Of a stretch of DNA of 64,000 nucleotides, positions 15,001 through 21,000 are shown piece by piece. Position 1 is the stretch's first letter. Each line of letters starts with the position of its first letter. A program made the position numbers. This stretch comes from Escherichia coli (GTDB taxonomy: Bacteria; Pseudomonadota; Gammaproteobacteria; Enterobacterales; Enterobacteriaceae): assembly GCF_003790525.1 (NCBI RefSeq), contig NZ_CP033635.1; one strand, written 5' to 3'.

Positions 15001-18000
15001 AAAGCCGCCGACATGTTCGGCGGTTTTTTTTTGGTGCCCTGACCCCATCACCCAACAATAACCGTCAGCGCATGATTCCCCTGTCGCAGTATACGCCGAT
15101 AAGCGCTAATTAATTTTTCCATATCAAGCATGATGGATGCAAAGAGTTGCCCCTCTAACTCTTCTGAAAAGGTTACTCCCGGATAAATCTCCATTTCATT
15201 GAGTCGCTGAATGGAAAACTGTTTACGCAGCACATTTCGGTCAAGAGCTTCCAGGCGGTCGATTGTCGCAGCTAACTCCTGATTCCAGGTCAACCCCAGG
15301 AAACCATCTATGCCATCTTCGAGGCTGTGTTCACCAAGCACGGCACGACTCAACGGATCATTCTTCGCTGGATCGAACGCAGAGGTGCCTGTCAGGCCAA
15401 AATGTAAAAAATCCCAGCGTTTATCAATATCCAGTCGGCGTAATCCTGAAAGCGTGTCATGAATATTGTCCATTAAAGGTTTTTCAGCTGACTCAAGCAG
15501 TTGGTTAATCTTTTCTGAGTCGATTTCCGCAAAATAGCCAATCATTCCCATTTATTTTTCCTCCGTTGAATTTCATGTTTCGCATCTTAAAACAGATGAG
15601 GGAAAATAAAATGCGCATGTTGCTTTTTCTGGACCCGCCTCGAGAAAATTTTATTGTTTACTGTTGTATAACAAGGTGATAACGCCATCCACGACCTGGG
15701 CCATTTTCTGATAATTCAATCTGTCTGCGGTATCACCGGGCAAGTGGTATTGTTTATTACGATAAAAAGCGGTGTCGGTAATCATTACGGCGGGAATATC
15801 GTGTTGCCAATAATTAAGGTGGTCAGAGAAATCAATGCCGGGAATAAACCCTGGGGCATTCATAGAATAAACAGATAAATCCTGAGATGACAACAATGCC
15901 GCTTTTAGCTGACGAACGGCGTTGATATCCTGCATTCTGCCGACCACGGCAATAAAGTCTCCCCGATCGGGATAAAGCCAGGACATTGCCGGGTAAGGGT
16001 AATCCTGACTACCAGGCGCAGAGTCGTAATAGCCAATCATCTCCAGCGCTATCATTAATCTAACTGGACGCTCAAGCGAAGCTGCATGTACCGCGCTCCC
16101 CATTTCATCGCTACGAAAGAAGGGCGGTTCTTCCGACGCATAGGCGACCAGCTGCACGCCAGTTTTCGGTGCTTGCTGCTGTAACAAACGTGCCAGTTCG
16201 AGTAATCCTGCCACGCCACTGGCGTTATCATCCGCGCCCGGCGTATAGGTCAATTGATCGTTTTCATAACTGCTGGCAGAGTCATAGTGCGCACCAATAA
16301 TAATCAGCGGTCCATCGGCAGGACCATAATCAGCAACAATGTTTTTGTAGGGGCCACCCGTAATGGGGGCGTCCTGCGAGGTAACTCTGGCACCGCTACT
16401 GACAAAGACCTCTTTTATATACTCTGCGGACCTTTTCAGATTATCAATATTGTCGGCACTACGGGGATGCACAGTTTGTGTAAGATAACGAACTGTTTTT
16501 TCTAATTGCTCAGGACTTGCGTGTCGGGGCGTTGGCGGTAATGCATTGACCCAGGGTTGGTAAAAAATAATCAGAGGGAGTGAAAACAGAATTAATATAA
16601 TAAAAGCAAAGTTTATTTTTTTTCATATGCAAATTATTAATGGGTTGCGTTATTGAATCATTATTTGTTATAGGTTTCGATATTGTATTTTATCAAGATC
16701 AGCAGGATGATACAAAGAGTGTATTTTATGTCTGGTGCCTGAGTTTATTTAAAAGGATTTTATATGCGAAATAAAAATATAATCATGTTGCTTATGAGTA
16801 GTTTGATTTTGTCAGGATGTGGGCCGGAATCTGAGAATAAGGAAAGTCTGCAACAACAACCCAGTACTCCCACGGACCAGCAAGTGCTTGCCGCGCAACA
16901 TGCTGCAATAAAAGAGGCCGAGCAAAGATCCGTCGCCGCTAAAGCCACTGCAGACGCGAAAGCAAAAGCCTTAGCCCAGCAAGAAGCGCAACAATATTCA
17001 GACAAACAGGCTTTGCAGGGGCGCTTACAGGCGGCTCCAAAATATCAACATGCAGCCAGAGAAAAAGCAGCCTCCCAAATCGCAAATCCAGGAACCGCTC
17101 GCTATCAGCAGTTCGATGATAATCCGGTTAAGCAGGTAGCGCAAAACCCGTTGGCGACATTTAGCCTTGACGTCGACACCGGCAGTTATGCGAATGTACG
17201 CCGTTTTCTCAATCATGGGCAGTTGCCTCCGCCAGATGCAGTGCGGGTGGAGGAGATGGTGAATTATTTTCCGTCAGACTGGGTTATTAATGATAAAAGT
17301 AATAATAAAGAACCTGTTCCCGCCAGTAAGCCAATACCTTTCGCTATGCGCTACGAACTGGCACCTGCGCCGTGGAATGAACAGCGAACATTGCTGAAAG
17401 TTGATATCCTGGCGAAAGATCGCAAAAGTGAAGAGTTACCAGCTTCTAATCTGGTCTTTCTTATCGACACTTCTGGTTCAATGATTTCTGATGAACGTTT
17501 GCCACTTATCCAGTCTTCGTTGAAATTATTGGTCAAAGAACTTCGTGAGCAGGATAACATTGCCATCGTGACCTATGCTGGCGACTCCCGTATTGCGTTG
17601 CCTTCTATCTCCGGGAGTCACAAGGCGGAAATTAATGCCGCAATTGATTCGCTGGATGCCGATGGCAGTACCAATGGCGGTGCCGGGCTGGAACTGGCTT
17701 ATCAGCAGGCGGCGAAGGGGTTTATTAAGGGTGGCATCAATCGCATTTTATTGGCCACTGATGGTGATTTTAACGTCGGCATTGACGATCCTAAATCGAT
17801 TGAATCAATGGTCAAAAAACAGCGGGAGTCCGGTGTTTCTCTGTCCACGTTTGGCGTGGGGGATAGCAATTACAACGAGGCAATGATGGTGCGAATCGCC
17901 GATGTTGGCAACGGTAACTACAGCTACATTGATACCCTCGCTGAAGCACAGAAAGTATTGAACAGTGAAATGCGGCAGACGTTGATTAGCGTAGCAAAAG

Positions 18001-21000
18001 ATGTCAAAGCGCAAATTGAGTTTAACCCCGCGTGGGTAACGGAATACCGTCAGATTGGTTATGAAAAGCGTCAACTTCGGGCGGAAGATTTTAATAACGA
18101 CAACGTTGATGCGGGTGATATTGGCGCAGGTAAACATATAACGTTGTTATTCGAATTAACGCTGAAAGGGCAAAAAGCATCAATTGATAAGTTACGCTAT
18201 GCCCCGGATAACAAATCAGCGAAATCGGACAAAACAAAAGAACTTGCCTGGTTAAAGATTCGTTGGAAATACCCGCAGGGAAAAGAAAGTCAGTTAGTTG
18301 AATTCCCGCTGGGGCCAACAATAAACGCGCCCTCTGAAGATATGCGTTTTCGCGCAGCAGTAGCTGCATATGGGCAAAAGTTACGCGGTTCTGAATACCT
18401 GGATGAAATCTCATGGCAGCAGATAAAACAGTGGGCTCAGCAGGCAAAAGGGGAAGATCCACAGGGTTACAGGGCGGAATTTATTCGCCTGGTTGAACTG
18501 GCGGGTGGTGTGACTGACATCAGTCAGTGATGACTTTTTAGCAAACTATGTTCGACCAGTCAGCATATTTGCTGACTGGTCGAATTAATTAACAATGATG
18601 TTAACTTACTCTTTTGCCTGATGCTCTATTTTGGGGTTGTGAGTGTTTTATTTCTAAGTCTCTATAATAATCATTGATATTTGCATCGCCATATTTATCT
18701 AAATAACAATTTCTGTTTACCTGTCGATGTTGAAAATCAATTTCGTACTGCTCTTCTGCTGAATATTTTTTAAATCTGTCAGCATAGTTTTTTAATAACG
18801 TATAGGGAGCGCTGTCAGAATTGCTTTCCCTTTGTTCAATTACTTCTTTGGCTGACATGCACACAAATGCACCGCAACTTTGGCTTAAGTATTGCTGAAG
18901 ATCGGCATGTAAAAATATTATCTCGGGTTCAGTTAAATGAACTTTTATATTATTATTCGACATTTCTCCCATGAGTTCAGAATTAAAACTATTAATGATG
19001 CGCTTAAGTGAATTTTCTTTTTCATGGCCTAGTGCACGTAATGAATTGAATATGATGCATTTTATTTGTTGTGTGTTATTTTTTTCATTAACTATTTTTT
19101 GTAGCGAAACTAATATCCAGTGTCCGCCAGTATTTATGGGGAATAACTGGACTGCTTTCGGCCATGATGGATCGCTCTTAATATTATCATTGAGAGCGAT
19201 TTCCAGGTAAGTGCTGTTGGAATCGGGGAGGTAGAAATCAGTAGGATAATTGACTTGAGTATTTTTTGCATTAGCGGCTATCTTTTTAAGATAGCAAGCT
19301 ATTTCATCTGTGGTTAATTGACGATTTTTATCCCAGAAGTTTGTCCCATCGCTCAGTTCATTATTCTTATCATTTAAAAGTACCTTTGAAAGCGACTGTT
19401 TTTCTGATATAAGAGGAATGTCCTCACCGATAATTGTCATTAATTTCGAAGGGGAGAATAGTTTTTTGAACAAGAGATCATCTGAATCATGTGATTTGAG
19501 GGGGTGTTTGGTTGCGGTATGTGCCAAATTATATAATTTTAAACAGGCATTTTTAATAAGTCGGATAATCGATAGGGTCTCATTTGTTGGGTTTCTAACA
19601 ATATGGTAAAGAATATCTTCAGCTTTTTTCCCAAATTCATCATAACCTAACGCAATGTTATGCAGTAACTCAATACTTTCTTCATCTCCGGATAACGCTG
19701 TTTTTTTTAAAGACTGCAGTAATTCATCGGTCACAGTAAATTTTTCTGCAAATGTCTGACTGAGTTGGGTTTGAGATAATTGACAATAATTGCTGACAAC
19801 TGTAACCATTATAGGCTCCTTTTAGTTGCAAAGGTTGTGCTGAATGAAGATAAAAAGAGGCAACTTATTGCTCTGAATATAGTGCGTAAGGAGATGAATA
19901 AATATCAAAAATCGCTCAATATGCCCGTGTGGGTGGATATATGTGGCGTGGGTTGCGATAACAGGGCAAGTTTAGCCCTGTTTTTAATAATAAGCAGAGT
20001 TAAACGTTAAACACGGTGAAATCATTCGCCAGTTCAGTCGCCGGGAAAATTGACCGACATTCACGTAACAGGTGCTGACAACCTTTGTCATCATAGCGCG
20101 AGCTGACGTGGGTAATGATTAGCTTACCGACTCCAGCCTCACGGGCCAGTGTCGCAGCCTGGCGTGTAGAGCTGTGGCCGCGACTATTGGCTTTGGCTTC
20201 CATGGTTATATCCAGCGTCGCTTCGTGCACCATGACATTGACACCTTTAGCCAGGTCAAGTGCGGCATCGCAGGGGCCGGTATCGCCGAAAATAGCGAGC
20301 GCTTTACCTGGCACTGGAGCGGCTAAGTAATCTGCGCCGTTAATCTGCCTTCCATCTTCCAGCATGATTGTTTTGCCCGCTTTTAATGCCTGAAACAGTG
20401 GGCCAGGCGGTACGCCAGCAGCTTTTAATGCCTGGGCATTTAATGCACCCGGTTTATCATGTTCTTCAATACGATAGCCATAGCATTCCAGTGGGTGTTC
20501 CAGCGGATAAGCGGTCACTTTGCGCAGGCCATCATCGAAAATTTCGCCAGCGCCAATTTCGACAATTTCCAGCGGATAATCGGTCCATGAGCCGCTAATC
20601 CGCAGCGCGGTCTCCACAAATTCACGGATACCTTGCGGACCATAAATCGTTAAGGGTTGGACAATACCAGACATAGAACGACTGCACAGCAAGCCGGGTA
20701 AACCAAAGAGATGATCGCCATGAAGGTGACTGATAAAAATCTTGTCCAGTTTTCCAGGGTTAAAGGCGGTATGCAGTAGCTGATGCTGGGTGCCTTCACC
20801 GCAGTCAAACAACCAAAGACCGCTCTGGGTCGGATGTTGCAGGTTAAGCAATATTGCCGTGACATTGCGCGTACGGGTTGGCACACCGGCTGAAGTACCT
20901 AAAAAAATTAATTCCATGAGTTCATCACGTTTCAAAAAATATTCCGGCTAGTATAAGGCATACATCTAAAAGGAGAGCATTATGATTGAATGGCAAGATC

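Follow-up and report, generated by a model that had tools for sequence, protein, structure and literature searches.

The yfbK, yfbL and yfbM genes of Escherichia coli as probably separate accessory genes of the nuoN–rbn interval, with a start-proximal frameshift in yfbL

The yfbK, yfbL and yfbM genes of Escherichia coli encode a vWA-domain lipoprotein, an M28 peptidase and a DUF1877 protein, respectively, and are analyzed here in a 64,000-nucleotide stretch of E. coli DNA (contig NZ_CP033635.1 of assembly GCF_003790525.1), hereafter referred to as the window. Their closest described counterparts are the K-12 orthologues YfbK (b2270), YfbL (b2271) and YfbM (b2272; PDB code 1RYL), which are encoded in the same order and orientation and share 90.6%, 94.7% and 97.0% identity with the window proteins. 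The loci differ in the length of YfbK, which has 588 residues in the window and 575 in K-12 (spacer indels), and in the yfbN, yfbO and yfbP genes, which are inserted between yfbM and nuoN in K-12 and are missing from the window. SMS-3-5 and about a dozen further complete E. coli genomes match positions 14900 to 18700 with 100% identity, and all three genes are already annotated under these names by RefSeq in the identical SMS-3-5 genome. The reading that we favor, with a probability of roughly 60%, is that they are accessory genes that evolve separately and can each be dispensed with, lying side by side at a hot spot of recombination and deletion between nuoN and rbn, and not an obligate functional module.

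The systems most closely related to YfbK are found outside this locus. The anti-sigma factors of group ECF289, named after the extracytoplasmic function (ECF) sigma factors, consist of vWA and DUF3520 (Casas-Pastor et al. 2021, PMC7826278), and share the vWF_A N-terminal, VWA and YfbK_C module with YfbK at about 45–50% identity. In contrast to these proteins, YfbK carries a lipoprotein signal of 19 residues instead of a cytoplasmic anti-sigma domain and a transmembrane helix, and the yfbK gene of the window has no adjacent ECF sigma gene, its neighbors being yfbL and elaD. A second comparison is offered by the proposed vWA force transducers, which are tethered to the inner membrane, adjoin TolQR/ExbBD-like motors and possess a YfbK-like C-terminal globular domain (PMC12204202). 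The long linker between the anchor and the globular domain is common to both, whereas YfbK is predicted to be lipid-anchored at the opposite membrane and has neither a transmembrane helix beyond the signal peptide nor the SHLS motif; no TolQR/ExbBD-like motor genes were found near yfbK (positions 13000 to 23000). The same study labels YfbK as 'free periplasmic', but a tethered protein is anticipated because a lipobox is present. By analogy, YfbK may work like the periplasmic ligand-binding half of these systems, positioned on the other membrane, but it is a member of neither.

A Foldseek search with the predicted structure of YfbK returned archaeal ArnB, Catenulispora 4fx5, the Sec23/24 core and the ITIH1 heavy chain as best matches (E-values from 2e-18 to 4e-15), and in these proteins, as in the YfbK model, a vWA domain packs on a beta-sandwich that is followed by a helical region. 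The resemblance of YfbK to such folds is already in print (PMC12852372). With identities of 14–16%, template-modeling (TM) scores of 0.3–0.46, and other locations and partners, no function can therefore be transferred from them. As for YfbL, its PDB relatives are the M28 di-zinc aminopeptidases of Vibrio/Aeromonas (AAP; 1AMP and 1RTQ) and Bacillus (2EK8) and the bacterial glutaminyl cyclases, which match with E-values of 1e-9 to 9e-12. YfbL retains His, Asp, Glu-Glu and His at the corresponding positions, whereas an invariant Glu (LEMIG) serves as fourth metal ligand in place of the Asp that is usual in most M28 enzymes.

The distribution of the three genes within E. coli argues against an obligate unit. 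Full-length copies were counted over 5,426 complete genomes, with yfbL scored by its catalytic region, and were found in 5,355 genomes for yfbM (98.7%), 3,292 for yfbL (61%) and 2,512 for yfbK (46%); about 780 genomes have a full-length yfbL and no yfbK. All three genes are present in the haplotype of K-12, the window and 2013C-4187. A second haplotype retains yfbL and yfbM and has lost yfbK through a deletion that joins the first ~36 codons of elaD to the upstream region of yfbL, and the resulting elaD'-yfbL fusion, an open reading frame (ORF) of 378 residues, occurs on many contigs and in ~14% of the complete genomes. The haplotype of O157:H7 and NT1F34 consists of yfbM, a broken yfbL and a 38-nucleotide stub of yfbK, and the underlying deletion, which takes out yfbK and disrupts yfbL, is found in ~38% of the complete genomes, O157:H7 included. 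Independent insertions of IS1 are located in the yfbK–yfbL intergenic region (IAI39) and within yfbL (LH10-b-1, SBF22). The IS1 copies were mapped to positions 349–1046 of retrieved locus L099 and 4138–4835 of L103, and to NZ_CP067235.1 (H1/H146). The choice of strain thus matters for the study of these y-genes, since more than half of the complete E. coli genomes lack yfbK and ~40% lack an intact yfbL.

Outside E. coli the combinations differ again. The best 120 matches to the E. coli proteins were all E. coli variants, and the Superficieibacter orthologues were used as queries instead. E. albertii contains yfbM, yfbL and yfbK without elaD; in its type strain, yfbL has an in-frame stop at the position of a Trp codon (...AMS*LYP..., L009 942–944). 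Superficieibacter has yfbL and yfbK without yfbM. In one further enteric, the place of yfbM in the nuoN–yfbL slot is taken by a Septu pair (L089 7978–9900; PtuA, 4e-168; PtuB, 2e-69), which suggests that this site gathers mobile or defense cargo. In the one Salmonella sequence retrieved, nuoN is followed by a DUF1877-like remnant that has decayed, then by yfbK and a cheV-like gene, and yfbL is missing; the published gene numbering of SL1344 likewise has yfbK without yfbL. The Salmonella remnant, which is uncalled, lies between nuoN and yfbK and shows 35% identity over 124 residues (L095 6383–6739), and the cheV-like gene sits between yfbK and rbn.

The genomic contexts of the YfbK family were collected from 80 loci among the matches listed, a set that lies outside E. 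coli and Salmonella and describes the loci rather than absence from species. No M28 or DUF1877 gene was found within 10 kb of the YfbK homologue at any of the 78 non-enteric loci of this set, and no YfbK-family gene within 7 kb of the YfbL homologue at the four non-enteric YfbL loci (51–54% identity). The three genes do not show the co-occurrence of a functional gene cluster, that is, of an operon-like module, and their phylogenetic distributions are largely independent. The initial annotation had presented yfbK, yfbL and yfbM as one envelope cluster; that grouping is not upheld, as the frequencies of the genes diverge and YfbM has no export signal. It had also assigned the interval 16764–18530 to the whole cluster, an interval that corresponds exactly to yfbK and excludes yfbL (15651–16626) and yfbM (15048–15551), while the divergent arrangement that it described, with yfbL on the opposite strand 137 nucleotides upstream of yfbK and followed by yfbM, is correct.

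Sequence divergence along the locus is uneven as well. Synonymous divergence from K-12 amounts to 0.32 for yfbM, 0.09 for yfbL, 0.19 for yfbK (0.33–0.34 in its 5' half), 0.06 for nuoN and 0.01 for elaB, and the differences between yfbM, yfbL, yfbK and nuoN indicate old, recombining haplotypes with separate recombination histories along the locus. The divergence of YfbK from K-12 is mainly synonymous, which likewise points to old haplotypes. The slot between nuoN and rbn also holds unrelated cargo, namely elaD, yfbN-yfbO-yfbP, the cheV-like gene, the Septu pair and IS1.

The yfbL gene of the window carries a lesion directly behind its start codon. The A tract that follows the canonical ATG has eight residues (A8) versus seven (A7) in K-12, and for this reason the ATG is out of frame; translation from it gives MKKNKLCFYYINSV... 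and ends after 38 codons. The frame that encodes the hydrophobic N-terminus (KKINFAFIILILFSLPLIIFYQPWVNALP...) opens on a TGA and contains no ATG, GTG or TTG ahead of the GTG at 16472, and a start at this GTG would cost the first 48 annotated residues, the hydrophobic export segment among them. Exported YfbL is therefore not encoded from a canonical start in this genome, in which the ATG is out of frame and the frame opens on TGA. RefSeq annotates the gene from an ATA, also in ATCC 25922 and Nissle 1917, and this start masks the frameshift in SMS-3-5 and in both of these strains. The window, Nissle 1917 and ATCC 25922 thus combine an intact yfbK with a yfbL that has no in-frame ATG. The description of YfbL as a signal-peptide-bearing M28 peptidase holds for the peptidase domain (E-value 6.1e-26), whereas the frame of the export signal lacks a canonical start.

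Judged by its recurrence, the A8 tract is not a sequencing slip: an exact 81-mer containing the window A8 is present in 30 records, and A8 is found again in a second, unrelated haplotype (Nissle 1917, ATCC 25922, UPEC 26-1) with 85 exact-match records, the A7 counterpart of which has 553. A systematic sample of 60 records contained four with a +1 tract, and a fifth (-1) case proved to be an ATG that has lost its G and not a change of the tract. Across strains the tract varies as A7, A8 and A12, that is, a 5' homopolymer that differs in length as in a contingency locus, but the A8 alleles give the appearance of clonal fixation, which speaks against fast switching. The yfbL gene of E. albertii begins with MKRII and has no poly-A tract.

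Slippage on A runs this long is known from E. coli. The extra A cuts the start codon off from the reading frame, and exported YfbL could then arise only by slippage of the RNA polymerase or the ribosome on A8, or by weak non-AUG initiation; a +1 slip, or a transcript one A shorter, would give back exactly the A7 protein. Because the exported enzyme would need one of these routes, its level is probably strongly reduced in this strain. The enzyme itself looks catalytically active, since 32 homologues all share the metal ligands and the catalytic Glu (H113, D133, E165/E166, E195 and H269 in K-12 numbering). The match to the M28 profile PF04389 (91.8 bits; threshold 21.3) is strong, and the ratio of non-synonymous to synonymous divergence (dN/dS) from K-12 is 0.23. 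With every catalytic residue kept, YfbL is likely a di-metal M28 aminopeptidase that faces the periplasm.

The yfbK gene is a single ORF of 588 codons on the forward strand that RefSeq annotates as yfbK in SMS-3-5, whose sequence is identical here, and the ribosome-binding region upstream of it (TTAAAAGGA) is kept across genera. The N-terminus of the product (MRNKNIIMLLMSSLILSGC, followed by GP) has the basic n-region, hydrophobic core and lipobox of a lipoprotein (MRNK-NIIMLLMSSLI-LSGC; pattern [LVI][ASTVI][GAS]C), with the lipobox at L16-S17-G18-C19 and a Gly at +2. According to the established +2 sorting rule for lipoproteins, this Gly predicts sorting to the outer membrane. The three Pfam domains of the family are found in the expected order (PF12450, PF00092, PF12034), the VWA profile scoring 77.7 bits (curated threshold 23.8), and the PDB sequence matches of the VWA domain are BatB-like proteins, ITIH4 and alpha2-delta. 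The residues of the metal ion-dependent adhesion site (MIDAS), D235, S237, S239, T303 and D333, are invariant in 32 diverse homologues (41–50% identity). The initial annotation of a vWA lipoprotein with an intact MIDAS is thus supported by the lipobox, the VWA match and these five residues.

An AlphaFold2 (AF2) model of YfbK, computed from an alignment of the 32 homologues, has a predicted local distance difference test (pLDDT) score of 83.5 and a predicted TM (pTM) score of 0.78. It displays a 48-residue single helix (residues 38 to 85), disorder up to residue ~110 and then a compact body, in which YfbK_C forms a beta-sandwich with a helical end. The spacer (residues 20 to 110) is Gln/Ala/Lys-rich and variable, with 70% identity to K-12, indels and a dN/dS of 0.35, the highest value in the protein; dN/dS is 0.20 for the whole protein and 0.09 for the vWA core. 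The possibility that YfbK is a surface protein under diversifying selection was considered and rejected, given the overall ratio and a value that does not exceed 0.35 even in the spacer. YfbK may accordingly be pictured as a periplasmic lipoprotein anchored in the outer membrane, in which a helical or disordered spacer of ~90 residues carries the vWA domain, the beta-sandwich and the helical end. The MIDAS would most likely grip an acidic side chain of some envelope ligand via a bound divalent cation.

The three-domain core of YfbK is widespread, with 7,156 cluster representatives at E-values of 1e-30 or below that typically share ~50% identity over residues 105 to 585, and the N-terminal part of the family is highly variable. 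When the 150 nearest representatives were sorted by simple sequence rules, 14 were lipoprotein-like, 16 had an N-terminal signal or anchor, and at least 73 had a transmembrane segment preceded by a cytoplasmic region. These cytoplasmic regions often contain the motif ...LTAYALGEL..., and one of them (P0176) matches zf-HC2, a zinc-finger profile of anti-sigma factors. The commonest neighbor is an ECF sigma gene, which is found at 17–19 of the 80 loci, mostly immediately downstream. In Shewanella, Colwellia and Psychromonas, homologues of the lipoprotein type are encoded directly upstream of an ECF sigma gene. Elsewhere, this module makes up the periplasmic portion of the ECF289-type anti-sigma factors and of the proposed force transducers; the E. 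coli protein is an orphan form of it that has neither a sigma factor nor an anti-sigma domain or a motor next to it. This family-wide tie to ECF sigma/anti-sigma signaling and to the proposed force transducers, and not the neighbor yfbL, is the best functional lead for YfbK.

YfbM is confirmed as the DUF1877 protein by its family match (E-value 6.1e-34; PF08974, 118 bits) and by the alignment of its residues 1 to 167 with the 1RYL chain (1.2e-105). Its N-terminus (MGMIGYFAEIDSEK) has no hydrophobic leader and no export signal; in the lack of such a leader, YfbM is not visibly an envelope protein. It is best described as a probable cytoplasmic protein that is near-core in E. coli and has no evident tie to YfbK or YfbL. 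Judged by their length and their strong family matches, the three ORFs are genuine genes and not chance. No NCBIfam equivalog-level match was obtained for YfbK, YfbL or YfbM, in agreement with the earlier view that none has an assigned physiological role. PADLOC returned no defense-model match for any of them; together with the absence of YfbM relatives from 50,697 phage records, this led us to discard a role in a defense system. Earlier descriptions cover the genes, their families and both the structural and the ECF connections, and the genes are real, known and ordinary. The frameshift and the presence/absence pattern are useful observations at the level of annotation and not discoveries.

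A search for inverted repeats between yfbK and yfbL detected weak AT-rich palindromes over the yfbL start only, and no credible shared operator. A scan of positions 14900 to 18700 yielded 10 promoter-like sites (7.1 expected) and five terminator-like sites (3.6 expected), none of the latter between yfbL and yfbM, and is uninformative. A genomic SELEX (systematic evolution of ligands by exponential enrichment; gSELEX) study of LldR has a weak peak within or near yfbK, with a poor match to the consensus (10/14).

Published phenotypes for these genes are few and all derive from screens. Deletion of yfbK has been reported to cause poor RP4 conjugation on plates and loss of rifampicin-induced persistence, each in a screen. 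In a 2025 preprint, deletions of yfbL and of yfbO rendered K-12 resistant to phage N4 and were complemented from plasmids; yfbK is not mentioned there. This resistance is the only complemented phenotype of yfbL, and it pairs with the repeated natural inactivation of the gene. The yfbO gene, which the preprint reports as needed by N4, is among those absent from the nuoN–yfbM junction of the window. All three genes are mentioned by name in the announcement of the genome-reduced strain DGF-298, which may bear on their dispensability.

The preferred reading, in which independent gain and loss and the yfbL frameshift of this strain make an obligate unit unlikely, has to be weighed against several observations that count against it. 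In E. coli, yfbK is nearly always accompanied by yfbL sequence, with 2,512 genomes for yfbK and 2,524 for the whole three-gene stretch; the large haplotype that has neither gene has lost yfbK and yfbL together, which a single deletion explains and functional coupling also predicts; and the divergent yfbL–yfbK pair occupies the same position in Escherichia (E. coli and E. albertii), Superficieibacter and one further enteric. These are also the points on which the proposal of the initial annotation can build, according to which YfbK acts as a metal-dependent adaptor to recruit or regulate YfbL in the periplasm, with both genes co-regulated from the shared intergenic region. Their adjacency would then be kept for functional reasons, their joint loss in O157:H7-type genomes would follow, and the export signals coded for both proteins, the predicted periplasmic orientation of both products, and the conserved MIDAS and active site would fit such a pair. 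The distribution does not support it: yfbK persists without yfbL in Salmonella, the ~780 genomes have yfbL without yfbK, and no pairing was seen at any of the 78 and four non-enteric loci. Moreover, an intact yfbK coexists with an out-of-frame yfbL ATG in the window, Nissle 1917 and ATCC 25922, the N4 preprint that recovered yfbL and yfbO is silent on yfbK, and no shared operator was found. We regard the adaptor-protease idea as weakly supported and unlikely.

The variety of yfbL lesions invites another explanation, namely that N4-like phages use YfbL as a host factor and that its loss or down-tuning is selected for this reason, the A tract being a heritable switch between an on and a leaky state. 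Independent lesions of at least seven kinds were observed, including A8 in the two unrelated haplotypes, A12, the lost G of the ATG in THO-010, IS1 insertions, the internal deletion or frameshift of O157:H7-type genomes, the nonsense codon of the E. albertii type strain and the absence of the gene from Salmonella, and the N4 resistance of the complemented K-12 deletion points in the same direction. The tract, however, is short compared with classical contingency tracts, and its A8 alleles appear fixed in an ST73-like and an SMS-3-5-like group and not as fast-switching variants. Relaxed selection on a dispensable gene would give the same pattern, the dN/dS of yfbL shows no sign of decay or adaptation, and the N4 result comes from a single unreviewed K-12 study that gives no mechanism. 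Selected loss of yfbL is thus quite unlikely, and the fuller version, in which the tract and the many lesions reflect phage-driven selection and YfbK might share an envelope substrate with YfbL, we consider very unlikely; if it were true, a one-base change of the tract in this strain, Nissle 1917 and ATCC 25922 would reduce YfbL to a slippage-dependent trickle and trade an envelope function for phage resistance. It is similarly improbable that YfbK of enterics detects a periplasmic or outer-membrane cue, as its anti-sigma relatives do, and signals to an unlinked pathway. The family-wide ECF link, the anti-sigma-like N-terminal fusions, the lipoprotein-type homologues upstream of ECF sigma genes and the purifying selection on the vWA core all speak for a sensor, but the surroundings of yfbK contain no sigma or anti-sigma gene in E. 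coli, Salmonella and Superficieibacter, yfbK is lacking from over half of the E. coli genomes, and its reported phenotypes are weak and screen-derived. RpoE and FecI are the only ECF sigma factors known in E. coli K-12 and both have known regulators, which also counts against a sensor. Independent accessory genes at the nuoN–rbn hot spot therefore remain the reading that we prefer.

Table 1. Coordinates of genes and sequence features of the yfbM–yfbL–yfbK locus and its neighbors in the window.
Feature	Position	Strand	Details	Basis
nuoN	13523–14980	+		
nuoN–yfbM junction	14981–15047		67 nucleotides, empty; site of yfbN/yfbO/yfbP in K-12	
yfbM	15048–15551	-	DUF1877 protein, 167 residues	ORF, Pfam, PDB sequence match
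yfbL, including the canonical ATG	15651–16626	-	M28 peptidase gene	
yfbL as in RefSeq	15651–16616	-	321 residues, ATA start; predicted exported or anchored M28 metallopeptidase	Identical genome annotation
Peptidase_M28 domain of YfbL	15675–16343	-	Residues 44–266 of the 273-residue ORF	Pfam
GTG of yfbL	16470–16472	-	First canonical in-frame start; 273-residue ORF	
Out-of-frame reading from the yfbL ATG	16510–16626	-	38 codons, TGA end	
A8 tract	16616–16623	-	Directly 3' of the yfbL ATG; variants A7 (in frame), A8, A12	
Canonical yfbL ATG	16624–16626	-	In frame in K-12, out of frame here	
Divergent intergenic region	16627–16763		yfbL ATG to yfbK ATG, 137 nucleotides, AT-rich	
yfbK	16764–18530	+	vWA lipoprotein, 588 residues and stop	ORF, RefSeq, Pfam, AF2 model
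Predicted lipoprotein signal peptide of YfbK	16764–16820	+	Residues 1–19, LSGC	Sequence
Predicted long single helix of YfbK	16875–17018	+	Residues 38–85	AF2 secondary structure
vWF_A N-terminal domain (PF12450)	17094–17399	+	Residues 111–212, E-value 4.9e-33	Pfam
VWA domain (PF00092)	17448–17951	+	Residues 229–396, E-value 1.6e-21	Pfam
MIDAS DxSxS motif	17466–17480	+	D235-T-S237-G-S239	Sequence
YfbK_C (PF12034, formerly DUF3520)	17979–18503	+	Residues 406–580, E-value 5.9e-67	Pfam, AF2
elaD	18601–19809	-	GC content 0.35	

The gene order of the region is nuoM, nuoN, yfbM, yfbL, yfbK, elaD, rbn, elaA, elaB and menF (Table 1). The elaD gene encodes an ElaD/SseL-type deubiquitinase and has a GC content of ~0.35, compared with ~0.5 in the flanking sequences. 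It looks like a horizontal insertion, because of this low GC content and because E. albertii, Superficieibacter and Salmonella lack it at the corresponding site. Several E. coli strains (NT1F34, LH10-b-1) carry elaD as a pseudogene. Finally, the ORF of rbn called mechanically on the reverse strand (20000–20935) opens on a TTG and has 311 codons; this TTG is probably not the real start, as RefSeq annotates a protein of 305 residues (918 nucleotides).

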